Source of the DNA: a virus
Lineage: Duplodnaviria; Caudoviricetes
Length of the DNA stretch: 53,460 nucleotides
Virus record (IMG/VR): IMGVR_UViG_3300001534_000001
Coordinates: 1-53,460 of that record
Direction: 5' to 3' (one strand)
Part shown: positions 1,492 through 14,891 of the stretch, piece after piece
How the letters are laid out: each line of letters begins with the position of its first letter
Position numbering within the stretch: position 1 is the first letter of the stretch
Position numbers and translations under genes: made by a program
The notes under the pieces: generated by a model
Told to the model about the DNA's origin: nothing
What the model saw: the letters and a program-made list of their open reading frames with translations, nothing else
Database searches by the model: none

Positions 1492-4400
1492 TTATTTATT
1501 TTCATGCTCTTTTTTTATTGTCGTTTCAATAGCATTCGCATTAGCTTTTATTGATTTAGCTTTCTTAGCATCATTTCCATGTGGCGACATTAATTGTGGA
1601 GCGGCAATATTCAATATTGATTTTAAAAACCTACCAGATTCATAGTCTTTCTGGTTGTAATCATCATCCAGCGATCCGCTTATTGGATTAGCCATTTCAA
1701 ACATGGGATTAATACCAAATAAACCCTGGGCAAGATTCTCCGGCATCTGCAATCCCGCAGGTGCTGTTTTTGACTTACGCAGGAATGATGGCTCTACCTG
1801 TCCCCTGAAGTTATGTATGCGGCTTAAATAAGGTGCATCTCCGGTAGTTCCGGTAAATGGTATGGAAACCAACGGGGAAGCCGTGTACTGGCTTAAATAG
1901 GTGTTTACAGCTTGTATTTCTGAAGATTCAATAACCTGGCCAATATTACCACCAAGTTTAGCAGTTTCATATCCTTTATATGCCCCAACAGCTTTTAACC
2001 CGCGATCTGCAACAATATTGGTAAACCCTATACTGAAATCATCCCAACTATTTGTGCGCTTGTTGTAATAAAACTTTTTAATGAAAGCATCTTTTTTCCA
2101 TTCTTCAGGAATGGGTACTTTTAACAGTTTTGCATGCGGATCGTCTGATGGCCACTTGCCGGTTACTTCTTTATGGATAAGCATCCAGTAGCCGATAAGC
2201 CCCAAAATACCACCTGTCATTATTTGCGCCAGCTTGTAATAAATAAACTTCCCGGCTTTTCCTGGATCATCAAATCCGCCGCCTCCTTTACTAAAAGGAT
2301 TATCAATTGGCATCTGTGTCATCATAAGCAAGTTCTTTAACCCAGCGCGATAATATGCCCTGGAGAATGTAGCAAACGGCGCAATCCCATTTTCTTTAAT
2401 AAACTTCTCTAACTTACCCTGCAATGACGATGTGTATTGTCCCATATCGGCAAGCATTTTAACGTACTGTTCAGGAGTGGCGTTCGGATTCATTGCCCGT
2501 ACCAGCCGAAACATTGTTACCCTGGCTTTCAGGTCTATCCCGTTCTTACCGTAAAGCAATGGAGAAAAGTCAAGAAATTTACCCTTGTTAAATACCTTTT
2601 TGAAATTACCGGCAAGCAGGTCCTTCCATGGTAAAGGAAATTGTGTCGGTTCAACTCCCATTGATTTTGCAAACTCATGGCTATAGGTATGTGTCCAGGT
2701 CTTTTCAGGAATTAAACCCATTGCAGCCATTTGCTGAACGTCCTGTGCAAATTCATCTGAAGATGGACTGGTAAATAAAACTTTACCCATGGCTCCGAAT
2801 ATTTTAACAATAGGGTTATTCAGCACTAATCCGGCTGCATGACCTAATATGCCATTCTGATAAGCCCATTCCTGCATATAAGGCATTGAGTTGATAATCC
2901 CCGATAATAAGCGGTATGAGTGACCTACGGCCTCCGCAGGGCCACCCAGCATAAAGTTAACCGTGGCGTTCAATATATGCCCGAACGCGGTATAATGGTC
3001 GTGATCTGAAATATCGCCCTCTATTATCGGTTTAATTTCCTGATACAGCCAATTAGGCACAAGCACATATCTTGTTGGTGTATGAATTATCTGGTTGTTT
3101 GTAATAATGGTCCTGGCATCCGCTACAGGTACTTTGGTAGCTTCGTAGGTTACGCCATTGATTGAAATATATTTGTCGCTGCTATCGCCGGAAACATGCG
3201 CTACTAACCCAGCATCATACAATGCCCTGATTGCGGCAGCTTTATTATTGGTTTTAAATGACGCTGATAGCTTCTTAGCCAGCGCTGATATTTCTGAACT
3301 ATACAAATCAGCGCTCCCTTTTGTAAAATGGTTATTTATATTGGCGGGCTCATTGTATTTTGTCTTTGCAGGCATAACAACCTTATGTGCATCCTTTCCA
3401 ACAGGTGACAATGGATAATAAGTATCAAGCGGCCCCAGCGCATCGCTGAATATACCCTCATTGGTAACGTGACTTTCCCTGAATGGTTTTTCGATTAATT
3501 GCTTGTATTGCTGTAAGGATTCCTGATATTTTGGATTAACAAACGATAAATTACCGGTACCATCCGGCTGCGTCATTTCATCAAACGTTTTCCCGTTGGA
3601 TAACTTACCAAAGAAAGAAACGTTGTCAGCTGCATTATCAAACATCTGGCCAAGGTAATCCCGCGCATCGTCATATTCCTGATTATCCAATAATGCCAGT
3701 ATGCTCTGCGCGGGGTTCTCGTCATCATCGTAGCCTTCCAGGTCTTTTATGATAGAATAAACTGCGGATGATTTGCCAGCGTCAAACAAGTCAGATAATT
3801 CAGTATCATCCATCGCCCTGATATCCCTTGCAAAGTTTTGCCACCGTTCCCGTGTACCGCGTAGCCTGCTTTCCATCAATGCTTCGCGCAATACTTTATA
3901 ACCATCTTCGCCGATCAGTTTATTTATTTTATCATTGGATAGTTTAATATTAACATTAGCTTCTGATTTTGAAGCAGCAAAATGAAGCATAGCGCGGAAT
4001 GCCGTCATATCGGTCATATCTTTGCCATAGAATTTAAGTTGCTCAAGGTTACGCACATGAACATCTTTTAACTTGCCCCATAGGCTATAATTCTTTTTAA
4101 CACCATCTGGTTCATCCGGGCTTTCTGATTCCGGCGCATCGATCAACTCCATTGGTATCTTTTCCTTTTTGGGTATCCGACGATTTGGCTCACCATCTTC
4201 CCCCCCGGTAGTTACGGGCGGAGTAACCGGAGGTTTTGGCGGAGGAATAGCGCCGCTTAAATCTGAACTCAACACACCATCCGGGTCCGCAGCCATTACT
4301 GCGGCCACTTCGATGTATTTATGCAATTGCTTTTTGCTTAGGCCAATCAAAGGCAATTTTGCAAATGTTTTTTCATCCGGCGAACTGGCTTTTATTTTTG

Positions 4401-7400
4401 ACTGCAATTCTATGGCCGCTTTCACCAGGTTGGCTTCAGTATCAGTATCGTTGGTATCCGGCGCAGTATGCCTTTGAGGAATAGTAGTTTTTGCCAGCAT
4501 TTCATTAATACTCTGCTCAAAGTCGCTTGCCTGTGCAGTATCGCCGCCCCTATCAATGATATACTTTACTGCTATTCTAACTGCCTTCTGTGTACTGTTG
4601 GTTGCTTTAACCACGTTCTTCAGTATATCAATTGCCCCGTTCCATACAGCCGGAGGTATTGGTACAAGCAACCCCATCATTTGACCACCAGGTTTAGCCT
4701 TTAGCTTATCCATAGCGTCCAGTATCGGCTTAACGTTGCTTTGGTCTAATATTTCATCAATGGCAGGAAGCCGCTCATTTTCGCTTTTTTCTTTTTCAAC
4801 CCCTTCTTCAATCATTAACCCTTTTAAAGTTTCAGACCGTACTTCAAGTTCTTTTAAATGGGTATCGTCGAATTTTTGATCAATATCATGACCAAGTTGC
4901 TCGATATTATTTGTGTTTTGGGATATAAGCGCTTTTGTCTTACCAGGCTTTTCAATAACATCTTCCAATTTTGAACGTAGTGACGATAACAAGCCAACAC
5001 CCTTACCACTCGGAACGGCTATACCTTTGCCTGTATAATAAGGATCTTTTATTCCGAGATCCAGTATGGTATATTCAAGTACCGAACCGCCTAATCCCTC
5101 ATGTAATGACAGTTGAACAGGGACACCGTTTATCTTTATTTCACCAGTGGAATATTTGGTAGGACTTTCCTCATACTTTTTATTCAGCCGGTCTAAATAA
5201 CCATCAACAGCAGCAGGGAACTTTTCGGTAGCTTCCGGCTGGCCACTAACCTCTACTTTCAATATTTCTCCATCAGGGAATGATTTTTCTACTTTGGCTG
5301 CATTAAACTCGTCCTTATTTAAAGCGGCTTTATTGCGGTTCAAATTAGACTGCGCTGATTGTAAGTCGCGTTTCGCCTGGATAACCCTGCCAAAGAAAAT
5401 ATCCTTTTTAGTTTTTTCTCTTTTTATGTTAGCGTCTGTTTTTATTTTTTCAATGGCATATTTGCTCCCGGATAGCCTGGCCATCATTTCATCAAAGGTC
5501 GGCACATCTTCGCCGGCCGCATCATCAATAACGCGCTCAACTGTCCCGGTAGTCATAAGTTGCTTGATGAACTTCTCTTTATTCATCAGAACATTATATG
5601 CCATCGCATCTGCGGTGCCTTCCATGCCGTTGTTTGAAACCTCAACTATTTTATTTTCATTACCAGGCCTTAAAATACGTCCCTCCCTCTGAACCATATC
5701 CGAAGGACGGTTGGGAACGTCAAGATGATGTTCGGCGACTAAGTGTTTTTGAGCATTTACACCTACTCCCATTTTTTCGGTACTCCCAAACACTACACGT
5801 ACCAACCCCTCGTTTACCGCTTCAAACAATGCTTGTTTACGTTCCTGTTTATCATATTTAGGGTCGGTAGCAATAGCTATCTCATTTTCAGGAATCCCGG
5901 CAGCGATTAACTTCTTCTTCATATCCTCAAAAAGATGAAACTGTTTTTTACCGTATGCCGGATTTAAAAACTCCTCATTTTCATCAAGATATTGCCGTTC
6001 GCCTGTCATGCTATTTTGACGATCTGAAAATATCATCTGCGTACCTTTAATAGCTTTGGTATCTGCGTGTTTCTTTACAATTACCTTAATAAGATTATTA
6101 ACCTTACTGTCGGGATGGTCCTGCGCCTCCGGGTTGTACATACGCGGATCAATACTGGCAACCTTAGCGTGCCCATAAAGCACCACCGGGATACTTCTGT
6201 TCCGGCCTAACCGTTTTTCTTGCGAAGATAGATTGCCCCAGGCTTTTAATTGCCTTACGATGCTATCTAAAATTTCCTTTACTGGCGGTGTAAGCGGGAT
6301 TATGTTTTTAGTCTTCTCGCCGTTTAACAATTTAGGAACAGAACCACTGTCGGTTATTTCCTTAACATCATCTTTTAAAACCACATGAGCAATCGACCTG
6401 AAGGCGGTCAATAGTTCAGGAGCATTCTTAAAGCTACGGAACCTGTTTACGTTTTTAAAAGAACCGGTAGCATTAAATTCAATATCATTTGCTATAACGC
6501 CAAATGTATTTACAAACTGGTCAAAATGCGTTATGCCTAATCGCTCAACTAATTCCGGCCTGATAAACCGCATCCATGTCCATACTTCGGCCATGGTATT
6601 GGTGATCGGGGTACCGGTGAAGAAGTTTACATTTTTACCGCCTGTCTTTTCCTGAATATGCCGGGTTTTAAGATAAAGCGATTGAGCCCTCTTTGATGCT
6701 GTCTGGTCAATTCCCTTTATGTTTTGTAGCGAAGTGGTTAGGCCAAGTTTTTTGTAGGCATGGCAATTTGATACTAAGATGCCAGCGGCGAAGTAATTAT
6801 GGTTGTCGGCAACTGTAAGGTCATAAACTCGGTCACTTGGCGAATTACTAAATCCAAATCCTGCGTCACTTGCTCGTTCGTAAACCTCAATACCTTCCAC
6901 CCTAACGCATTCAAAATTTCCGTTTTCCGCCTGTCCAAAAACTTCCATTTCTTCAACCTGTGTGTTTTCCCGTCTACCTCTATAGCTATCATCAGATCGG
7001 GCATACCAATATCCACCTTGTAATGATTTGGCAACGATGGGAATTGTCCCCATACAGGCCTCGTCGCTATCCCCCACTCCATATTGTCCTCCGGCAATCC
7101 CAATGCTTTGCATAGGGTAATTTGCTGCGGGGTTAAAGTCCCATTGCCTCCCCTTGACAAAAATGTTTTCCCCTGCATACTGGCTTTCATTTTTGCTACA
7201 GATTTCGGGTTGCTCATTGGATTGTTTAATTTCATTCTGGCTGACGAACTTGGACTTGGTATCCCCAAAGACTTTTTCCCCAACCAAATTCCGTGAAGTC
7301 TCTTTTGCTCTTGAATATGTGGCAAACTGTTCCGATACTTCGCTGCACAATGTCCCGAACAAAATCTTTTCGACCGTACTTTTACTGGATTTATTTTGCA

Positions 7401-10400
7401 CCATTCGCATATCGGCATTGGATTCAGATTTCTCCCTGTTGGATTGTCCTGTGTGACTTGGGTTGCTTTGTATAGAGACGCACATCTCGTGCTGCAAAAT
7501 ACATACTTCTCCTTTTTGACCGGGACTTTCTGACACCACCTGCAAAGTGGTAAATATAATTCTGTCGTTATTGGTGAGGTCTTTTGCTCGGATGTATCCA
7601 TTTTCGGTTAATATATGGTGGTTGGACGTACATACAAAAGTACCGTATTTATGCCTCACTTTCAACATTTTATTTACAATTGGTTTCCTCAGCCAATTGG
7701 TTATTCTTTTTGTCTCATACGTCCCCGATAATACATTATAGCTTAATACTTGCAAGTCTAATTTTTGCTCAACTATCAGCCCTATTGGTAACCAACCTTT
7801 GGTTGTTAAGACCGGGGTTTCGTAAGGGAAACACTCGTCTAAGATTAAGTTATCAATCCCCATGTCCTCAAAATGCAAGGCCGACCTATCAGTATGACGA
7901 TTTAGCAACCTTTCCATTTTAGCTTCTGTACTCAAAGCCTTTTTAGCCTCATTCTTTACATTTTTACCCTTCTTTTCAATATACTCACCCTTTGCGTTCA
8001 TTTTAAGCGCATCCGGATCATCCACCAGGCGCATCTCGTGATCAAGGTCACGTAGCTTGCTTTCGATAGCTTTTTTATCGGCGCCATTATCAGCCTCGTC
8101 GATGGATTTTTGAAGATTATCTATTTTTTCCTGAATATATGCCTTGCGCCGCTCCGGCTTATCAGGGATCATATCAAATTGAGAATGCGGCATGATGATA
8201 GCATCCCAATCCTGCGTAGAAATTTTCGCATAAAGTTTAGCCCTGTTCTCTGCGGAGAAATCTGCTTCGGATGGCGCCAGTATTTTAGCCGTAGGATACA
8301 TTCTGCGGAAACTGGTAACATATTGCCCCAGCGTTGCTTTCTGTACCACCACCATCGTCTTTTTAGCCAATCCAAGCCTTTTAGCTTCCATGGCCAGGAT
8401 GTGCTGCACGAAGCTCTTACCGAAGCCAACCTCTTGCGCTCCGAGCGTACTTTCAGCAAGCCCCCTGGCTACTGATCTCTTTTGCTCATCGTATAAACTG
8501 ATTGTTTTAGACTGCCCCGGATAATAATCAATATTAGGTGTCTGCCAATTTCGCTCAACAAAATTGTTGTAGATTTTATTATATATCGGTTCGGTAATAT
8601 CCTGTGCCTCTTTATTTGACCGCATGAAAGTCACAAACTCATCCTCGATCTGCGCTTGCCTTTCCCTTGCTTCTTCAGTTGCATGAGCATCAATACCACC
8701 GCCGTCTGCTTTTGGCATACTAACGGTTGTCTGAATGTTATTTAAAGCGTTTTCTAACAGCCGTACACCATCAACACCACCACCTGCATAGGTGGTTCTA
8801 TTCCTTGAATCATGCAGGCCATAACTTGAAGCAATATCCCATTTAGCAAGGGCCTCTTTATATTTTATTGTTGAATCAACTCCTAAAAGTGATTTAACAA
8901 AATCTTCATAAATAGCAGGGGGAACCCAGGTTGAACCAAGTGAATATTGAATAAGTGATGCTGGTATATCTTTTGGAATAACTTTTTCAAGTTCAGCTAC
9001 GTTCCTATTAAACTTTTCATCAGTTTCAACAGCCGCTTTAGCCTGATCCAGTTTGTCACGCACATAGCCAGACAAGTATTCTTCCGGGCTTTCCAATAAA
9101 CCTGTATTCGGATTTTCAAAGGCAAGGTTTTCGTTTATTAACGTATTTTTAACATCAGCTACCGGCTGACCTAACAGTTTTGAAATATAATTCAGGTCAA
9201 GGCCGTTTCTGTAATTAAATGAAATATTTATAGCATCCTTAATATTTTCTGCTGCATCCGGTTCGGTACGGGGAAAGTTTATCCGCTTTTTAAATAATGC
9301 TGATTTTTTTATTTCGGTAACTTTTTTACCACCTCCCTTACCATCATCTACAAATTTATCCTTTGCTTCCTCTAACGATTGAACCAAAGGATAGTCAACG
9401 TCATCTTCAAGAAACTTTATTGCCCTATTTTTATGCAGGGCTTTATTCTTTTCAACAAAAGCATCGTATTCTTTATTTAATTCTTTTCGGAGGGCCTCAA
9501 TATTAGCTTCTGCATTTACCGGAGATAATTCCTGCTTGATCAATTCAAGCAACGTGGTTTTAAGTGCGATATATGCTTTGGCTATTTTTACCTCGGCAGG
9601 CTTTTCATTATACTTAGCTACTCCCTCACCATCCCTCACCATATAAATCTTACCGCCCTTTTCAAACATGCTGCCCTCTTTTTTGTCAATGGCCTCTACA
9701 GTTTCCTCAACAGGCTTTTCAACCTGTGCTGATTGTTCCTGCTGCATAATATCAGATGGGAAAGACTTGATAGCTTTATTTAAGTTTGAGATAACGTTGT
9801 ACCCCGATGGCGCATGTAACGTGGCATCCTTACCTCCATATAAGCCGCCTGATCCAGCTTCATCGGCTGTCATCATCTTACCAAGCATATTTTCAGGATG
9901 CTGATGATAATATTCATTTACATTTATAGGTACCTGGTTGCCCTCTTTATCAAAATGCTTTTCTTCTATTGGATAGGTGTACCTAAACTCATTCTCCAGT
10001 GGATTAATTTTATTATTATCCCGTTTACGGAATACTACAATATCAGTCGTAACCTGTGTGCCTGCGTTCTCTGAAAATGCGTTATTTGGTAGCCTCACAG
10101 CCCCCACAAGCACGCTATTGCCACCGTCCGGGCTTGACATCCATTCGCGGAATTTTGGGTCGCCATCAAGCGTGCTTTTCGATGTGATAACCATTGCAAC
10201 ACCGCCAGGCTTTAACAACCGCATACTTTTACCGATAAAGTAATTGTGCATGTTGAATTTGGAGATGTCAGGATAGTTTTTATCGAATGGCGCTTTCTGT
10301 GCAAATGGCACATTACCGATAACAAGGTCCTGGCTATTGGGCTGCACGTTTGATTTTTCAAAACCTGACACGGTTATCTTAGCTTCCGGGTAAAGTTTTT

Positions 10401-13400
10401 TAAGCATACGCCCGGTGATACTGTCGAGCTCATAGCCGGTTAGCTTTGTGCTGTCACGCAGGTCTTTCGGCATCAGGCCAAAGAAGTTTCCTATACCGGC
10501 AGATGTTTCCAGCGTATTCCCACCTTTAAAGCCCAACTGCTTTGCCAGTTCCCACATTTTATTGATAACCTGGCGTTCGGTATAGTTCGCGTTGATAGTT
10601 GAGTTTTTAGCCGCATTCAATTCATCATTGGTAAACAATGAGCTAACCAATGATTTGCGCACTTCATCTATACCGATTGGATAACCTGAATTATTTAGCT
10701 TATTCTTTATCTCATTGGCAAGTTCGCTGAATGAGGAATAAGAAGGTGCGTTAATGGGCCCGTCTTTTGAAAAGTCCAAAATTTTATTATCCCACCGGTT
10801 AAGGCGCACCACTTCGCGCTTCCCGGCTATGGCCGCATTTACAGCCTGCTCATTGGAGTATTCACCGCCTTTAAGGTATTCAGCCAAGCCCCCCCACCCG
10901 ACAAATTGTGCCAGTACCTTCTTTTCTTCCGGGGATGGGTTACGGTCTTCACTTTCCAGTTTTTTAAGCAGGAAAATGGCATCCATGTTTTTGTTGAACT
11001 TTTCAATAGGGGAGCCTTCACCTATTTCATCATCCTGCCGGATATAGTGATTTTGATCTTCAGGCTTTAAACTACGCTTTTCAGTATTTTTTGGTACTCC
11101 TGATCCGGCATTTTTGGAACGTCCTCCCTGTCTGTCAGGTCCACTTCCGGTGCCAGCAGGGCTTCCGTTATCATCGCTTCCACCTGGTCGTACTTCAGGG
11201 ACGGTTTGTTTTCCATGATCTGCATTTCCATTTTCACCGCTGTTGTTGTCAGGTCGTCCAGGTACTTCTTCAGTTTGTTTTCCTGGTACAGCATTTGCAG
11301 CCTTTCCGGGTAATTGTCCCGCAGGAATTGAAGGTGTATTTCCTTCCACTCGCTGTCGTTCATTGTCTGTTCCATTTTCTTTCTTGGTTATATAATCCTC
11401 AAATTTTGCTTTACGTACTTCTTTGAGGTTGGTCATGGCCTCTATTTCTTCATCGGTAGCATCTGCGCTGGTGGCAAATGCTCCGTATGCGGCTTTTAAT
11501 CCATCAAAAACTTCGCCAGCTTTTTCACCGAGATCTTCGTACAGGTCTTTAACTATCTCTCCAAAGTCGTGTATGCCTATTTTAGCGTAGATGGCCAGTA
11601 GTTTGATACCTTTCTCAATGGTTTCTGGATTAATGCCGGACATGGCCTTATTGAAGGTGTCCATAAAGGCTTTCTTTGCCTTTTTAAGCTCATCTTCGTA
11701 TTGGGCACGCTTGGACTGCTTTTCGGACTTCGGTTCTTCTTTTGGCTGCTCCGGTTCAGGAGCCTTTTCATCGGTAGTTTTAAAATCATCCTCGCGTGGC
11801 TGTAATCCAACCGTTACGCCTTGCCGGGTCGGGATGATATTTACTTTTTCCTGACTGAATATGCCATTACCCTCATCTTTAGCGCGAACACCATGCTCAT
11901 TTTCGTACAAATCCTTTCCTGCGGCATTTGTACCGACATGGGTATAAGGTGTGCGGTCTTTACCAAGCGTAATAACAGAGGGCGATTCTTTTGATGGTTG
12001 CGGTAACCCGGCATTAGCCAGTTCTTTGTCAACTTCATCAATAGATGCGTCTATTTCATTAATGACCCCTGCTGACTTGGCACTTCCTCTTGTTGTAGCC
12101 TTTGCTTTTCCAACTGTAACTGTCGCTTTAGCGATAACAGCTTCAGTATTTTCGGTATCGGTGTTTTCACCTTCGGGTTTGATTGTTCCTCGTGGGGATT
12201 TAAGGCCAGATTCATAAGATTGATCTATTTTTGCCTGCAACTCTGCTGGCGTTAGTTTTGATAAATTACGTTTATATGCTTCAATAGCATCTTCTTTGGT
12301 TTTTCCTTTTCCTAAAGATAGTCCGGTAGAACCCTCTGTGACACCATATCCGTCAGTACCATGAAGTTTATGAGTAAAAACATCTAATTTATAGTTGTTT
12401 TTTAAATTCAATGGTTCACCCTCTACCTGAACATATTCAGGTTTTTCGGCAGTCCCCATGGAAACATAGTACGGATTTTCGGCTACTTTTTGGTCATTAC
12501 CTTGTACTTGCCCGGCTTCATTTTTGGCTGCACTTTCTCCGGCAGGGACTTCTGATCGGTTTTCGCTGCCCAATCCTTCGCCCATGGCTGATGATTCGCG
12601 AATGCCCACTTTTCCTGTGCTTTGCTCTGAAATGGCATTTGTTGGTTCCTCCTTATTTGTTAATGTATAAAAATATTCTTTAGCCCTGAACGGAACTTTC
12701 CAACCGCTTTCCCTGGCATCAAGCTGTAATTGTCCGTTCTTATCAATTTGCCTAATCGTAGCAATATCTTGGCCTGTTTGACTTTTTGCAGTGATTAATG
12801 CAATATTGTTCCCGTCTTTATCAACATGCTGATCAAATATTTTAGCTGTCCCCTTTTTTATTGGCTCTATCGATTGATCGGGAGATAAAAATTTATTAAC
12901 ATCAGTTGTTTCGGTTTCTGCAACTACCGGCTTATTTTCAACAGTTTTATTAACTGGCGCAATAGCTTTTCCCGCGCCTGCTGTTTCATCTGCCGGTTGT
13001 TGAGCAGATATCTCCGTATTTGTTTTGGCTTGTTCATTTTTAGGTATAGTTGCTTTGATTATTCTATCAGGATTAGCGGCCACAACCTCGTCCAGCTTTT
13101 CAGCGTTGGTTTGGGCTGGTGCCTGCTGCTGTTTAAACGCATCCAGTTCATTATCCAGGTCATCAAGCTGTGAAGCATCAACCGCTGGTGATGCAGCTAC
13201 AGGCGCAGGTGGATTAGGCTGTACTGATTCAGCAGGCGCAGCTATTTGAGCGGCTCGTTTCTTTTCCTGTTCTTTCTCGTAATCTTCAAGATCAGCCCTG
13301 TCCTTTGTTATCTCAATCGGTTCCTCGCCGTTCTGCTGCTTCCAAAACTTACCTTCCTTCTCAAAATAACGGAATGACTTATCTGTAGCCAATTCGGTCA

Positions 13401-14838
13401 ATTGATCATTAGCCTGCTCAATCTTAGCCGTTACCAGGTTCTTTAAACCCTCTACCTTTGGCTGCATTGCCGGATCAATACCTGATTCATTATTTGCAAT
13501 ACCTTCCTGTACACCTTCCAATTGCCGCCTACCCAATATCAAGCTAACTGCGGCATTGAATTTATTTGGCTGCAAACCCTTTGGTATTGAATTAACCACA
13601 TCTGCGATTTCATCGACCTTTCCTTGTGTGTGTAAAATATCAGTAGCGCTCCATCCTTTTTGTTTCCCAATATTACCTAACTGAACTTTTATTGCCTGAA
13701 CTGTTTGTGGTGAACCATCCTTTTGCAAAACATCTACCACCGGATTAAGATATGGCGACTTATCGTACAGCATACCATCCGTAGAGGCCGCGTGTAGCAA
13801 TGAAAACCCAGCGGCAGGGGTATTTATCATATTTAAGGCAAATTGCCCTAATGAGCCGTTAGCTGGTGTGCTGTCATTGTAAACTGGTGAGGAAATATCC
13901 TTTACAATTTCATCACCGGTAACACCTGGAAAAGGTGCCTTATTATTTAAAGCATTAACACCTGCCTTTAAAGCACTCCTGGCAAGATTAGCCCCGGCGA
14001 AGTCAAGCGCAATATTAGGATATGCTTTTAAATATCCCAAACCAACCTGTCCAAACTTTTGAGAAAAGGATAATGTTTTGGCAAGGGCCTGCTGGCTGTA
14101 ATATTGTGAAATATCATCAGCCGTAGCATTTGCCGGTAAATCAGCAAGTGATCTTGTAGCATCAGCGGCTAATGAAGCGGTAACCTCATTCACAAGCGGC
14201 TGTCCCCCTACTTTACTTAATATTGTGCCGGTTACTGATTTACCTAAAGCGTAGCTGATAAGGCCGCTCCCATAAATCATCAACCTGTCTGTGCCATTAT
14301 CAAACTTAACTCCCTGTGCTTTTAGGTTATCAACGGTTCTTGACATATTGCCAACGGCCTGTAACCCCATGATCTTTGCGCCCTGTGATTCACCCCCCAA
14401 TAGCATGGGTATCATTTTACCTACAGATGCGGCAGAACTATTATTTATAAAATCCTGATTATATCCAAGGTTAGCGCCTTGGTCATACTTTGCCAAAGCA
14501 TCCATTTCGCCCTGCTGTATGTTTTGTTCATGGCCCGGATCAATAAAGCCAGCCTTAACACCCAAATCACCAATATCTGAATGTACTTGTTTTAATGCGT
14601 GTAACCCTTCACCAACGGCGTTCAATACACCAGCGTCAAACGGAATAACAACGTTTCTTACATGATCTGAAAAAGAGGGCTCACCTGCGGCAACCCTATC
14701 CGGCTTTTGTTGCGGGATATTGCCTACATTCTTATCTGCGTTTAGAATATTATTAGCATTTGGATCATAGATAGGAATTAACCCTGATTTAGCATCCGAC
14801 TCTGATTGCTGTTTGGTGTAAACAGGAGGGGACGGCAT
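1492..14838 (-). CDS. Giant polyvalent virion cargo protein with DarB-like N6-adenine DNA methyltransferase and SNF2-type helicase; intein-containing
   Basis: 4448 aa. Pre-methylase motif NMDAIFLLKKLESEDRNPSPEEKKVLAQFVGWGGL; SAM-binding LETSAGIGNFFG; motif IV IGNVPF; Walker A-like QEVGFGKS; Walker B ILDE^CH split by an intein; TGTPITN; helicase C motifs GSTEKMGVGVNAQ and QREGRILRPGN. Follows ejection-protein-like genes. Confidence 0.85.
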   Translation of the reverse strand: MPSPPVYTKQQSESDAKSGLIPIYDPNANNILNADKNVGNIPQQKPDRVAAGEPSFSDHVRNVVIPFDAGVLNAVGEGLHALKQVHSDIGDLGVKAGFIDPGHEQNIQQGEMDALAKYDQGANLGYNQDFINNSSAASVGKMIPMLLGGESQGAKIMGLQAVGNMSRTVDNLKAQGVKFDNGTDRLMIYGSGLISYALGKSVTGTILSKVGGQPLVNEVTASLAADATRSLADLPANATADDISQYYSQQALAKTLSFSQKFGQVGLGYLKAYPNIALDFAGANLARSALKAGVNALNNKAPFPGVTGDEIVKDISSPVYNDSTPANGSLGQFALNMINTPAAGFSLLHAASTDGMLYDKSPYLNPVVDVLQKDGSPQTVQAIKVQLGNIGKQKGWSATDILHTQGKVDEIADVVNSIPKGLQPNKFNAAVSLILGRRQLEGVQEGIANNESGIDPAMQPKVEGLKNLVTAKIEQANDQLTELATDKSFRYFEKEGKFWKQQNGEEPIEITKDRADLEDYEKEQEKKRAAQIAAPAESVQPNPPAPVAASPAVDASQLDDLDNELDAFKQQQAPAQTNAEKLDEVVAANPDRIIKATIPKNEQAKTNTEISAQQPADETAGAGKAIAPVNKTVENKPVVAETETTDVNKFLSPDQSIEPIKKGTAKIFDQHVDKDGNNIALITAKSQTGQDIATIRQIDKNGQLQLDARESGWKVPFRAKEYFYTLTNKEEPTNAISEQSTGKVGIRESSAMGEGLGSENRSEVPAGESAAKNEAGQVQGNDQKVAENPYYVSMGTAEKPEYVQVEGEPLNLKNNYKLDVFTHKLHGTDGYGVTEGSTGLSLGKGKTKEDAIEAYKRNLSKLTPAELQAKIDQSYESGLKSPRGTIKPEGENTDTENTEAVIAKATVTVGKAKATTRGSAKSAGVINEIDASIDEVDKELANAGLPQPSKESPSVITLGKDRTPYTHVGTNAAGKDLYENEHGVRAKDEGNGIFSQEKVNIIPTRQGVTVGLQPREDDFKTTDEKAPEPEQPKEEPKSEKQSKRAQYEDELKKAKKAFMDTFNKAMSGINPETIEKGIKLLAIYAKIGIHDFGEIVKDLYEDLGEKAGEVFDGLKAAYGAFATSADATDEEIEAMTNLKEVRKAKFEDYITKKENGTDNERQRVEGNTPSIPAGQLPGKAANAVPGKQTEEVPGRPDNNSGENGNADHGKQTVPEVRPGGSDDNGSPAGTGSGPDRQGGRSKNAGSGVPKNTEKRSLKPEDQNHYIRQDDEIGEGSPIEKFNKNMDAIFLLKKLESEDRNPSPEEKKVLAQFVGWGGLAEYLKGGEYSNEQAVNAAIAGKREVVRLNRWDNKILDFSKDGPINAPSYSSFSELANEIKNKLNNSGYPIGIDEVRKSLVSSLFTNDELNAAKNSTINANYTERQVINKMWELAKQLGFKGGNTLETSAGIGNFFGLMPKDLRDSTKLTGYELDSITGRMLKKLYPEAKITVSGFEKSNVQPNSQDLVIGNVPFAQKAPFDKNYPDISKFNMHNYFIGKSMRLLKPGGVAMVITSKSTLDGDPKFREWMSSPDGGNSVLVGAVRLPNNAFSENAGTQVTTDIVVFRKRDNNKINPLENEFRYTYPIEEKHFDKEGNQVPINVNEYYHQHPENMLGKMMTADEAGSGGLYGGKDATLHAPSGYNVISNLNKAIKSFPSDIMQQEQSAQVEKPVEETVEAIDKKEGSMFEKGGKIYMVRDGEGVAKYNEKPAEVKIAKAYIALKTTLLELIKQELSPVNAEANIEALRKELNKEYDAFVEKNKALHKNRAIKFLEDDVDYPLVQSLEEAKDKFVDDGKGGGKKVTEIKKSALFKKRINFPRTEPDAAENIKDAINISFNYRNGLDLNYISKLLGQPVADVKNTLINENLAFENPNTGLLESPEEYLSGYVRDKLDQAKAAVETDEKFNRNVAELEKVIPKDIPASLIQYSLGSTWVPPAIYEDFVKSLLGVDSTIKYKEALAKWDIASSYGLHDSRNRTTYAGGGVDGVRLLENALNNIQTTVSMPKADGGGIDAHATEEARERQAQIEDEFVTFMRSNKEAQDITEPIYNKIYNNFVERNWQTPNIDYYPGQSKTISLYDEQKRSVARGLAESTLGAQEVGFGKSFVQHILAMEAKRLGLAKKTMVVVQKATLGQYVTSFRRMYPTAKILAPSEADFSAENRAKLYAKISTQDWDAIIMPHSQFDMIPDKPERRKAYIQEKIDNLQKSIDEADNGADKKAIESKLRDLDHEMRLVDDPDALKMNAKGEYIEKKGKNVKNEAKKALSTEAKMERLLNRHTDRSALHFEDMGIDNLILDECFPYETPVLTTKGWLPIGLIVEQKLDLQVLSYNVLSGTYETKRITNWLRKPIVNKMLKVRHKYGTFVCTSNHHILTENGYIRAKDLTNNDRIIFTTLQVVSESPGQKGEVCILQHEMCVSIQSNPSHTGQSNREKSESNADMRMVQNKSSKSTVEKILFGTLCSEVSEQFATYSRAKETSRNLVGEKVFGDTKSKFVSQNEIKQSNEQPEICSKNESQYAGENIFVKGRQWDFNPAANYPMQSIGIAGGQYGVGDSDEACMGTIPIVAKSLQGGYWYARSDDSYRGRRENTQVEEMEVFGQAENGNFECVRVEGIEVYERASDAGFGFSNSPSDRVYDLTVADNHNYFAAGILVSNCHAYKKLGLTTSLQNIKGIDQTASKRAQSLYLKTRHIQEKTGGKNVNFFTGTPITNTMAEVWTWMRFIRPELVERLGITHFDQFVNTFGVIANDIEFNATGSFKNVNRFRSFKNAPELLTAFRSIAHVVLKDDVKEITDSGSVPKLLNGEKTKNIIPLTPPVKEILDSIVRQLKAWGNLSSQEKRLGRNRSIPVVLYGHAKVASIDPRMYNPEAQDHPDSKVNNLIKVIVKKHADTKAIKGTQMIFSDRQNSMTGERQYLDENEEFLNPAYGKKQFHLFEDMKKKLIAAGIPENEIAIATDPKYDKQERKQALFEAVNEGLVRVVFGSTEKMGVGVNAQKHLVAEHHLDVPNRPSDMVQREGRILRPGNENKIVEVSNNGMEGTADAMAYNVLMNKEKFIKQLMTTGTVERVIDDAAGEDVPTFDEMMARLSGSKYAIEKIKTDANIKREKTKKDIFFGRVIQAKRDLQSAQSNLNRNKAALNKDEFNAAKVEKSFPDGEILKVEVSGQPEATEKFPAAVDGYLDRLNKKYEESPTKYSTGEIKINGVPVQLSLHEGLGGSVLEYTILDLGIKDPYYTGKGIAVPSGKGVGLLSSLRSKLEDVIEKPGKTKALISQNTNNIEQLGHDIDQKFDDTHLKELEVRSETLKGLMIEEGVEKEKSENERLPAIDEILDQSNVKPILDAMDKLKAKPGGQMMGLLVPIPPAVWNGAIDILKNVVKATNSTQKAVRIAVKYIIDRGGDTAQASDFEQSINEMLAKTTIPQRHTAPDTNDTDTEANLVKAAIELQSKIKASSPDEKTFAKLPLIGLSKKQLHKYIEVAAVMAADPDGVLSSDLSGAIPPPKPPVTPPVTTGGEDGEPNRRIPKKEKIPMELIDAPESESPDEPDGVKKNYSLWGKLKDVHVRNLEQLKFYGKDMTDMTAFRAMLHFAASKSEANVNIKLSNDKINKLIGEDGYKVLREALMESRLRGTRERWQNFARDIRAMDDTELSDLFDAGKSSAVYSIIKDLEGYDDDENPAQSILALLDNQEYDDARDYLGQMFDNAADNVSFFGKLSNGKTFDEMTQPDGTGNLSFVNPKYQESLQQYKQLIEKPFRESHVTNEGIFSDALGPLDTYYPLSPVGKDAHKVVMPAKTKYNEPANINNHFTKGSADLYSSEISALAKKLSASFKTNNKAAAIRALYDAGLVAHVSGDSSDKYISINGVTYEATKVPVADARTIITNNQIIHTPTRYVLVPNWLYQEIKPIIEGDISDHDHYTAFGHILNATVNFMLGGPAEAVGHSYRLLSGIINSMPYMQEWAYQNGILGHAAGLVLNNPIVKIFGAMGKVLFTSPSSDEFAQDVQQMAAMGLIPEKTWTHTYSHEFAKSMGVEPTQFPLPWKDLLAGNFKKVFNKGKFLDFSPLLYGKNGIDLKARVTMFRLVRAMNPNATPEQYVKMLADMGQYTSSLQGKLEKFIKENGIAPFATFSRAYYRAGLKNLLMMTQMPIDNPFSKGGGGFDDPGKAGKFIYYKLAQIMTGGILGLIGYWMLIHKEVTGKWPSDDPHAKLLKVPIPEEWKKDAFIKKFYYNKRTNSWDDFSIGFTNIVADRGLKAVGAYKGYETAKLGGNIGQVIESSEIQAVNTYLSQYTASPLVSIPFTGTTGDAPYLSRIHNFRGQVEPSFLRKSKTAPAGLQMPENLAQGLFGINPMFEMANPISGSLDDDYNQKDYESGRFLKSILNIAAPQLMSPHGNDAKKAKSIKANANAIETTIKKEHENK
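6766..7833 (-). mobile_element. Intein (356 aa) inserted in the helicase DExH motif
   Basis: Starts CFPYETPVLT (block A); block B CTSNHHILT; ends VYDLTVADNHNYFAAGILVSN followed by extein Cys. Removal restores LILDE-CHAYK. Penultimate residue is Ser, not His. Confidence 0.92.
6774..7601 (-). CDS. Out-of-frame endonuclease nested in the intein: two CxxC/FCSxxC Zn motifs plus DUF559/Vsr-like PD-(D/E)xK domain
   Basis: 275 aa in the +1 frame relative to the host ORF. CRWC..FCSTRC, CEWC..FCSGHC, then YKVDIGMPDLMIAIEVDGKTH...ILNALGWKVLRFTNEQV. Confidence 0.85.
   Translation of the reverse strand: MDTSEQKTSPITTELYLPLCRWCQKVPVKKEKYVFCSTRCASLYKATQVTQDNPTGRNLNPMPICEWCKINPVKVRSKRFCSGHCAAKYRNSLPHIQEQKRLHGIWLGKKSLGIPSPSSSARMKLNNPMSNPKSVAKMKASMQGKTFLSRGGNGTLTPQQITLCKALGLPEDNMEWGIATRPVWGQFPSLPNHYKVDIGMPDLMIAIEVDGKTHRLKKWKFLDRRKTEILNALGWKVLRFTNEQVTQDLDLVIRQVTEFMTLQLPTTIITSPLAS
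11067..11375 (-). CDS. Overprinted (+1 frame) TnpV-like small protein inside the giant gene
   Basis: 102 aa. WKEIHLQFLRDNYPERLQMLYQENKLKKYLDDLTTTA resembles the TnpV pattern (W...HL.YL.E..P..Y..L...G.L..YL). The host frame here is low-complexity G/P/N/R-rich. A-rich sequence precedes the ATG. Confidence 0.65.
   Translation of the reverse strand: MEQTMNDSEWKEIHLQFLRDNYPERLQMLYQENKLKKYLDDLTTTAVKMEMQIMENKPSLKYDQVEAMITEALLAPEVDLTDREDVPKMPDQEYQKILKSVV
12483..12638 (-). CDS. Overprinted (+1 frame) 51-aa basic peptide MPFQSKAQEKWAFANHQPWAKDWAAKTDQKSLPEKV...
   Basis: Manual translation. TAAGGAGG (complement of 12648-12655) lies 9 nt before the ATG. Resembles short phage proteins beginning MPFKSKAQ (my recognition, unverified). 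Confidence 0.65.
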   Translation of the reverse strand: MPFQSKAQEKWAFANHQPWAKDWAAKTDQKSLPEKVQPKMKPGKYKVMTKK

Positions 14839-14891
14839 CTGTAATGCCGATGGCGTTGAAAGCCCTGGTATTGTTAAGTTTCTTTGTGTAG

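Follow-up and report, generated by a model that had tools for sequence, protein, structure and literature searches.

Whether an open reading frame (ORF) that lies out of frame inside a giant anti-restriction gene can be a gene in its own right is the question raised by the virus record IMGVR_UViG_3300001534_000001 (Duplodnaviria; Caudoviricetes). The window analyzed here is the whole stretch of this record, 53,460 bases with a completeness estimate of 73 %. Its giant host gene (1492..14838, minus strand) is, according to the ORF list and its translation, a single ORF of 4448 codons for a polyvalent DarB-like methylase-helicase protein with an intein in the helicase. Nested in it in the +1 frame is an ORF of 102 amino acids (AA) plus stop (11067..11375, minus strand; stop at 11067-11069), the predicted product of which, P0001, is an acidic five-helix protein of the TnpV superfamily. 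Judged from sequence comparisons, the gene nested at 11067-11375 is real. The best joint explanation of the data is very probably that the same 309 bases encode a disordered spacer of about 100 residues and a complete 102-residue five-helix TnpV-superfamily gene, where the host frame would supply the disordered spacer of the giant DarB-like methylase-helicase protein.

The nested ORF starts with an ATG, which overlaps the host codons AAT-GGA, and is located entirely within the host ORF on the same strand. As 14838-11375 = 3463 = 3x1154+1, its codons start at the second position of the host codons, i.e. in the +1 frame, so that the same strand, another frame and complete containment in a larger ORF coincide as in a nested gene. 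The host-frame reading of these bases consists of 91 % G, P, N, S, T, D, E, R, K, Q or A and 8 % L, I, V, F, M, W, Y or C, with glycine (19 of 102), asparagine (11) and proline (11) being the most common residues. This reading is part of a dual-coded linker rich in G, P, N and S, delimited by its composition (residues 1155-1258; 11065..11376, minus strand), which is 95-113 AA long in 25 of 27 proteins examined. It follows a helical domain detected with BLASTP (residues 1045-1154; 11377..11706, minus strand) that was found in all 26 of the 26 closest homologs examined by BLASTP and that shows invariant columns in the alignments A1 and A3. On the other side, the conserved methylase module (residues 1259-1700; 9739..11064, minus strand), located by BLASTP and tblastn anchors, begins at P1259 of 'PEDQNHYI', and this start was used as the anchor for all locus comparisons. 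The +1 stop codon stands 5 nucleotides (nt) ahead of the P1259 codon. Coordinates and composition therefore agree with the first-pass annotation, which had described a 102-AA +1 ORF within a G/P/N-rich host linker, ending just ahead of the methylase module (QNHYI).

The open +1 frame by itself is no evidence for a gene. When the host protein was kept fixed and synonymous codons were redrawn from the gene's own usage in 20,000 trials, the +1 frame was open for at least 106 codons in 54 % of the resamples, and an ATG-initiated ORF of at least 102 codons occurred in 27 %. This openness is expected by chance because a +1 stop codon requires the second base of a host codon to be T, which is rare in the linker (9 % of the codons). 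A second open +1 stretch in the giant gene (99 codons, 8172-8468) has a junk-like composition rich in W, R and C, and no relatives of it better than an E-value of 0.0095 were found. Since openness is uninformative, the case for a gene rests on conservation, codon-phase selection and a confidently predicted fold.

Conservation was assessed in 154 related DNA loci from viral and metagenome contigs (74 from IMG/VR and 80 from metagenomes), for 150 of which the beginning of the methylase could be located. The 330 nt preceding the methylase were compared in 41 distinct stretches, taken from the 70 loci of the first batch and the window: the host frame is free of stop codons in every one, the +1 frame has an open run of 58-109 codons, and 3-16 stops occur in +2. 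The +1 peptides are visibly similar among loci whose host proteins share just 30-40 % identity. A phmmer search with P0001 against 12,116 six-frame pieces from the 150 loci gave ten matches with an E-value of at most 0.01 (seven distinct sequences, best 4.8e-7), all of them +1 linker pieces, and the host-frame reading of the same 306 bases had no match below an E-value of 5 in the same set. A jackhmmer search started from P0001 alone converged with 16 matches, all in +1, as were all 33 matches of a 17-sequence profile. With the A4 profile, comprising 71 sequences, 60 of 61 matches were in +1. The sole match in another frame belongs to locus L088, where a host-frame stop codon lies between the ORF and the methylase. 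The TnpV-like ORF of L088 is consequently in +2 relative to the methylase. In L088 as well as in L106, L130 and L143, the host frame is interrupted by a stop 96-570 nt ahead of the methylase; frameshifted copies, errors of sequencing or split genes may account for these four.

Altogether, 114 of the 150 loci keep the slot, the frame and the stop position with one of two nested families, the TnpV-like one and a shorter one described below. The +1 ORF is thus conserved among the pre-methylase linkers of the homologs, and the lack of conservation that the first-pass annotation had named as grounds for dropping its proposal was not what we found. Several other searches were negative within their scopes: no relatives of P0001 were detected by a word-index homolog search at similar lengths, neither blastn with the region nor tblastn with P0001 gave a match to phages, and a search for related loci with single-sequence queries (the methylase segment, P0175 and P0185) returned none.

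The distribution of substitutions over codon positions follows the nested frame. Host codon position 1 corresponds to the third position of the +1 frame. Pairs of TnpV-like loci were aligned through the host frame, which avoids a bias towards +1, and in all 11 pairs the greatest variation is at host position 1 in the overlap and at position 3 in the methylase. In 31 distinct sequences from loci of the short family, pairs differ on average by 0.341/0.177/0.139 at host positions 1/2/3 over the overlap (51 codons) and by 0.177/0.123/0.388 over the methylase (288 codons), which is the clearest +1 codon phasing observed. In the lineage of the window itself, all three listed variants inside the ORF fall on +1 third positions and are silent in +1 (Leu, Tyr, Lys), and each of them replaces an amino acid of the host protein (E>Q, P>S, T>A). 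Among 35 further listed variants beyond the ORF, 29 occupy the third position of a host codon, and 31 leave the host protein unchanged (Fisher p = 0.01). These variants were taken from contigs of two runs of another study, with a depth of 2-3 and further differences beyond those tabulated. Contigs of the runs X2 and X3 match the window without listed differences.

In a second null model, the +1 protein was kept fixed and synonymous codons were resampled in 20,000 trials. The host frame was stop-free in none of these resamples, with a mean of 9.4 stops, and therefore its openness needs selection. Among the loci, it is open up to the locus edge in 145 of 150. These patterns argue that the predicted +1 product is under purifying selection that is stronger than that on the spacer, and that the spacer frame is likewise held open by selection, so that both readings would be in use. 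The two null models are asymmetric: the linker sequence yields an open +1 frame almost at no cost, whereas an open linker frame does not follow from the sequence of the small protein. Such an asymmetry is expected when a tolerant disordered reading overprints the gene of a structured protein.

The region ahead of the nested ATG (11376..11400, minus strand) is an A-rich leader and a putative internal translation start region. In the window, it contains no Shine-Dalgarno motif, which is also the case for most other genes of the window. In loci from hosts using Shine-Dalgarno motifs, GAGAGGAG, AAGGAG or AGGAGG stands ahead of the nested ATG, and motifs of the GAGAGGAG type also precede the canonical nested TnpV ORFs described below. 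An ATG is present in 30 of 30 distinct +1 peptides, and in 28 of these 30 versions the +1 ORF terminates within -53 to +10 nt relative to the beginning of the methylase. In 17 versions, another +1 stop stands 0-5 codons ahead of the first ATG; in the window, the distance is 4 codons. We infer that the small protein starts independently at its own ATG within the giant mRNA.

The first-pass annotation had likened the +1 product to TnpV. Its top Pfam match is indeed TnpV (PF14198), with an E-value of 7.9e-4 and 19.8 bits compared to a curated cut-off of 27, and only residues 8-56 of P0001 are aligned to profile positions 24-72 of 111. Pfam TnpV is also the only recurrent family in the relatives of P0001, matched by 4 of 17 members in one set and by 19 of 71 in a larger one. 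Stronger links come from profile comparisons and iterative searches. Using hhalign, the A2 profile matches that of canonical nested TnpV (A5) with a probability of 90.5 % and an E-value of 1.3e-6 over 66 columns, where the N-terminal helix pair and the C-terminal helix align around a gap of about 17 residues in the middle. The jackhmmer search from P0001 reaches locus L090 (E-value 4e-12), where the ORF scores 61.5 bits with Pfam TnpV. In six Firmicutes-like metagenome loci, a full-length Pfam TnpV (61.5-70.5 bits) is nested in the +1 frame of an open giant ORF, and the host frame opposite these canonical copies is a spacer rich in G, R, D, S and T. A remote-homology link to the TnpV superfamily was thus found by both profile-profile and iterative searches, by which P0001 is predicted to be a divergent member. 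The proposed resemblance is measurable and holds at the level of profiles, and it is weak for P0001 taken alone, the hidden Markov model score of which is below the Pfam cut-off.

Searched against 1.84 billion sequences, the A2 profile matched 541 cluster representatives with an E-value of at most 0.001, and most of the best 150 of these 541 are about 100 AA long. Nine of ten representatives that were looked up are located on contigs of 1-2.6 kb. Therefore, many of the representatives of about 100 AA may be nested genes that were called because the giant ORF is cut on short contigs.

The AlphaFold2 model of P0001, based on 71 sequences, consists of five helices with a mean predicted local distance difference test (pLDDT) score of 93.7 and a predicted template modeling (TM) score of 0.84. 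P0001 would thus be a small all-helical protein of mobile elements, and with an isoelectric point (pI) of 4.6 it is acidic like the family as a whole, in which 64 of 71 members have a pI below 6. A sequence search of the PDB with the A2 profile returned designed helical proteins only (best E-value 0.0089), and a Foldseek search of the PDB with the model gave nothing at an E-value of at most 0.001. With VIA-align, the best Z-score was 5.9 (2apl_A, root-mean-square deviation 2.8, 68 residues), which is too low to mean much for helical bundles. The best BFVD match, Q8W6J4_2, comprises 1093 residues of a long viral protein (E-value 0.12, probability 0.99, query TM score 0.61) and might hold an in-frame TnpV-like fold. 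The closest ESM Atlas clusters comprise unnamed proteins of about 100 AA (score 0.92), and a TnpV-tagged cluster at rank 12 (0.83) can serve as a lead only. None of the 17 members matched NCBIfam, nor did any match PHROGs apart from one stray endolysin match. The predicted fold is without an informative structural neighbor.

The slot ahead of the methylase is not always occupied by a TnpV-like ORF. A shorter nested +1 ORF of 56-62 AA is found in 53 loci (L007-L075), for example at L022:2425-2592. It has an invariant core, 'EACM..M.LTR.EAE.Y', and ends 2-35 nt ahead of the methylase. A Pfam search with this short family gave no match, and the idea that it is a truncated TnpV was rejected, as the hhalign probability is 4.6 %. 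The 16.6-kb 'DarB-like' gene of the Bacteroides phage BKO1-TP3 (PQ571269) contains a +1 ORF of about 87 AA starting with ATG in the same pre-methylase place (L157:2465-2794). Neither nested-family profile matches this ORF, and it may be a third family or a chance ORF.

Several of the results count against a nested gene with a TnpV-like product and a tie to its carrier. The long +1 frame is what more than half of the host-fixed resamples produce, the Pfam score of P0001 is below the cut-off and covers part of the profile, and the model has no informative structural neighbor. The selection specific to the window rests on three variants of low depth, and the closest DNA loci found share 38-40 % host-protein identity with the window, the top identity in the metagenome scan being 38 %. 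Neither nested family was detected at the thresholds used in 36 of the 150 loci, many of which hold only 1500 nt upstream. Finally, P1 darB has no nested or upstream TnpV-like ORF, and TnpV is a separate gene in small transposons, according to the available text of PMC3158075.

These points have to be weighed for each of the competing explanations. The ORF could be a product of chance in a hydrophilic linker with almost no T at second codon positions, without any product and with a TnpV match driven by composition. Both the host-fixed resampling and the sub-threshold Pfam score would suit this explanation, as would the junk-like 99-codon stretch elsewhere in the same gene. However, the +1 peptides remain mutually recognizable at 30-40 % host-protein identity and the host-frame linkers do not, 60 of 61 profile matches are in +1 although +1 pieces make up 18 % of the database, substitutions are phased on +1 and the fold is confident. 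The control with the host-frame query also speaks against a shared host-frame constraint as the source of an artifact, and chance is therefore a most improbable explanation. Another possibility is that the locus is a fossil, i.e. a TnpV-like domain or gene that was shifted out of frame by paired frameshifts and is now a decaying relic, or else an assembly error. Three proteins of 221-428 AA (P0175, P0185 and P0194) fit this, since in each of them the helical domain that elsewhere precedes the linker continues in frame into a TnpV-like C-terminal segment, where the protein terminates; P0175 is located on a 36-kb contig. They may represent an unfused or differently fused architecture. Against a fossil, no in-frame similarity to P0001 was found in the 120 listed giant homologs (best E-values 0.35 with BLASTP and 0.49 with phmmer), for which reason a domain lost from this gene by frameshift was rejected. 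Moreover, the ATG and the stop position are kept across 30 distinct versions, the contigs of X2 and X3, runs of the same study, agree with the window, and present-day variants are silent in +1 with a codon phase following +1, neither of which a relic would show. We consider a fossil very unlikely.

A third explanation accepts the coding capacity of the nested frame and assigns it to programmed +1 ribosomal frameshifting, by which a truncated giant protein (the N-terminal 1154 residues with a TnpV-like end) would be made beside the full-length one. Natural proteins with the preceding domain fused in frame to a TnpV-like terminus would suit this explanation, as would the A-rich run AAGAAAGAAAA ahead of the ATG. 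There is, however, scant room for frameshifting because the +1 stop stands so few codons upstream of the first ATG in more than half of the versions, and the ATG itself is kept in every one of them. Strong Shine-Dalgarno motifs 6-10 nt before the ATG in Firmicutes-like and GC-rich loci also argue for initiation at the nested start rather than for a shift, which makes frameshifting improbable, if less so than chance or decay.

What the small protein does is a separate matter from the existence of its gene. It could cooperate with its giant carrier in folding, packaging or activity, and the nesting would then guarantee co-expression. That it works with the giant protein carrying it is a guess, and a tentative one; this helper role is favored because two families with no detectable sequence relationship retain the same slot, frame and stop position in 114 of 150 loci. 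There is also a real possibility that the gene is genuine and its function unrelated to the giant protein, for example as an independent establishment, transfer or anti-defense factor, with the nesting being an accident of fusion. Many small anti-defense proteins are acidic, as are most members of this family. P1 DarB, which has no nested ORF, functions without such a small protein. In Tn4451- and Tn6104-type elements, TnpV homologs are separate genes, and giant genes are not described there in the available text of PMC3158075. The constancy of slot, frame and stop position with two families unrelated in sequence is nevertheless hard to explain by an independent role. A more far-reaching version of the helper role regards the pre-methylase spacer as a conserved slot in which small acidic helper genes are nested, occupied by at least two sequence-unrelated families, with the small protein obligatorily made within the giant mRNA. 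The TnpV-like family of about 100 AA and the family of 56-62 AA with the motif 'EACMEIMCLTR' share the +1 frame and the stop position, and the nested protein might act as a co-translational chaperone, a packaging adaptor or an activity switch of the giant protein. This version is possible but doubtful at present.

Concerning the origin of the overlap, the TnpV frame would be the older one and the spacer an overprinted reading, born when the flanking modules were fused into one ORF. The greater age of the TnpV frame is probable because selection and composition are asymmetric and because TnpV is a separate gene in clostridial transposons, as stated in the available text of PMC3158075. In this respect, the first-pass annotation stands: a gene is overprinted on the linker, and its frame is dominant and probably older. 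Its further proposal that the small gene once preceded a free methylase-helicase gene did not find support, as tnpV and methylase were not encountered as an unfused pair, the open host frame extends to the edge of nearly all loci, and the region upstream of P1 darB, which is a free gene, contains none of this kind. A gene-then-fusion scenario with read-through is plausible. The role of a partner or regulator, which the first-pass annotation also suggested for the small gene, is a guess.

The host gene belongs to a large family. Its protein matches an Eco57I adenine methylase at residues 1498-1567 (26.4 bits, Pfam cut-off 25.3) and the Pfam families Intein_splicing, SNF2 and Helicase_C, with SNF2 and Helicase_C scoring below their own cut-offs. 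One giant ORF thus combines an N6-adenine methylase module with a downstream SNF2-type helicase, as in DarB-like proteins, and long N- and C-terminal regions flank this core. At an E-value of at most 0.001, 1593 homologs were found among 1655 scored candidates, and these are annotated as DarB-like, PLxRFG or LPD38, those of phages as 'DarB-like antirestriction'. The leader of the first ATG of the giant ORF (14839-14868) is rich in G+C, whereas most other genes here have A/T-rich leaders, and a later ATG may be the true start. The intein is missing from the homologs, as the A1 consensus is continuous across the helicase motif. Nested in it is another +1 ORF of 275 AA (6774-7601, minus strand) that matches DUF559 (PF04480, Vsr-like endonuclease fold) above the cut-off with an E-value of 1e-11, and the in-frame middle of the intein opposite this ORF is junk-like. 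This ORF resembles a homing-endonuclease gene that the intein carries in a shifted frame.

Same-strand nested genes as a kind are known. Rz1 inside Rz, the spanin genes of phage lambda, and comS inside srfAB of Bacillus subtilis are complete embedded genes on the same strand with their own start in a different frame. The ORF described here is likewise small and fully embedded on the same strand in another frame. Rz1/Rz and comS/srfAB are each confined to one functional system, whereas the present host gene is an anti-restriction gene of 13 kb, overlapped in a disordered spacer, and the arrangement is kept across very distant phages and conjugative-element-like loci. The gene ardD is another anti-restriction-related mobile-element gene hidden in another gene; according to the available text of PMC3533173, it lies antisense in the tniA transposase gene of Tn5053, whereas the nested ORF here is in +1 on the same strand and inside the anti-restriction gene itself. 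The methylase-helicase core and the multidomain build of the host gene recur in P1 DarB and the polyvalent proteins (Iyer et al. 2017, PMC5512222). P1 darB begins directly with the methylase and has no nested ORF, in contrast to the extra N-terminus and the nested ORF of the host gene.

Compared to TnpV of Tn4451/Tn4453 (PF14198), P0001 is likewise a small helical mobile-element protein (about 100-125 AA for TnpV), and both share the N-terminal helix pair and a C-terminal 'AEE...' helix. P0001 differs in its sub-threshold score, in the missing middle of the model and in its location in another frame of a giant gene, whereas TnpV is free-standing. For TnpV, only a role like that of lambda Xis has been postulated, according to the available text of PMC3158075. 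The words TnpV, overlapping, frameshift and linker are absent from the main text of PMC5512222, and no description of the nesting was found in the literature searched, supplements aside. In the records of BKO1-TP3, Burkholderia phage Bcep22 and Klebsiella phage LASTA, only the giant coding sequence is annotated over this stretch; the profile finds the +1 ORF in LASTA (L159:2630-2959, E-value 1.6e-19) and Bcep22 (E-value 1e-4). The pairing of a TnpV-like gene with a DarB-like gene and the breadth of its occurrence therefore appear to be new.

Long same-strand overlaps are considered rare in bacteria and phages and are discarded by gene callers, and the overlap described here is one for which the data indicate selection in both frames. 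It is a clean natural case of a disordered linker written over the gene of a structured protein, and cultured phages such as LASTA and Bcep22 are among its carriers. For genome annotation, this means that TnpV-like proteins of about 100 AA on short contigs may often be nested and that 'split' giant genes may be mis-calls. An overlooked component is added to DarB-like anti-restriction loci, which is relevant to phage host range and plasmid spread, and the uncharacterized TnpV family gains a fixed, testable genomic partner. If the spacer does prove to be a nesting slot for helper genes, this would provide the first function for TnpV and place the region among the most widespread dual-coding ones in prokaryotic mobile elements.

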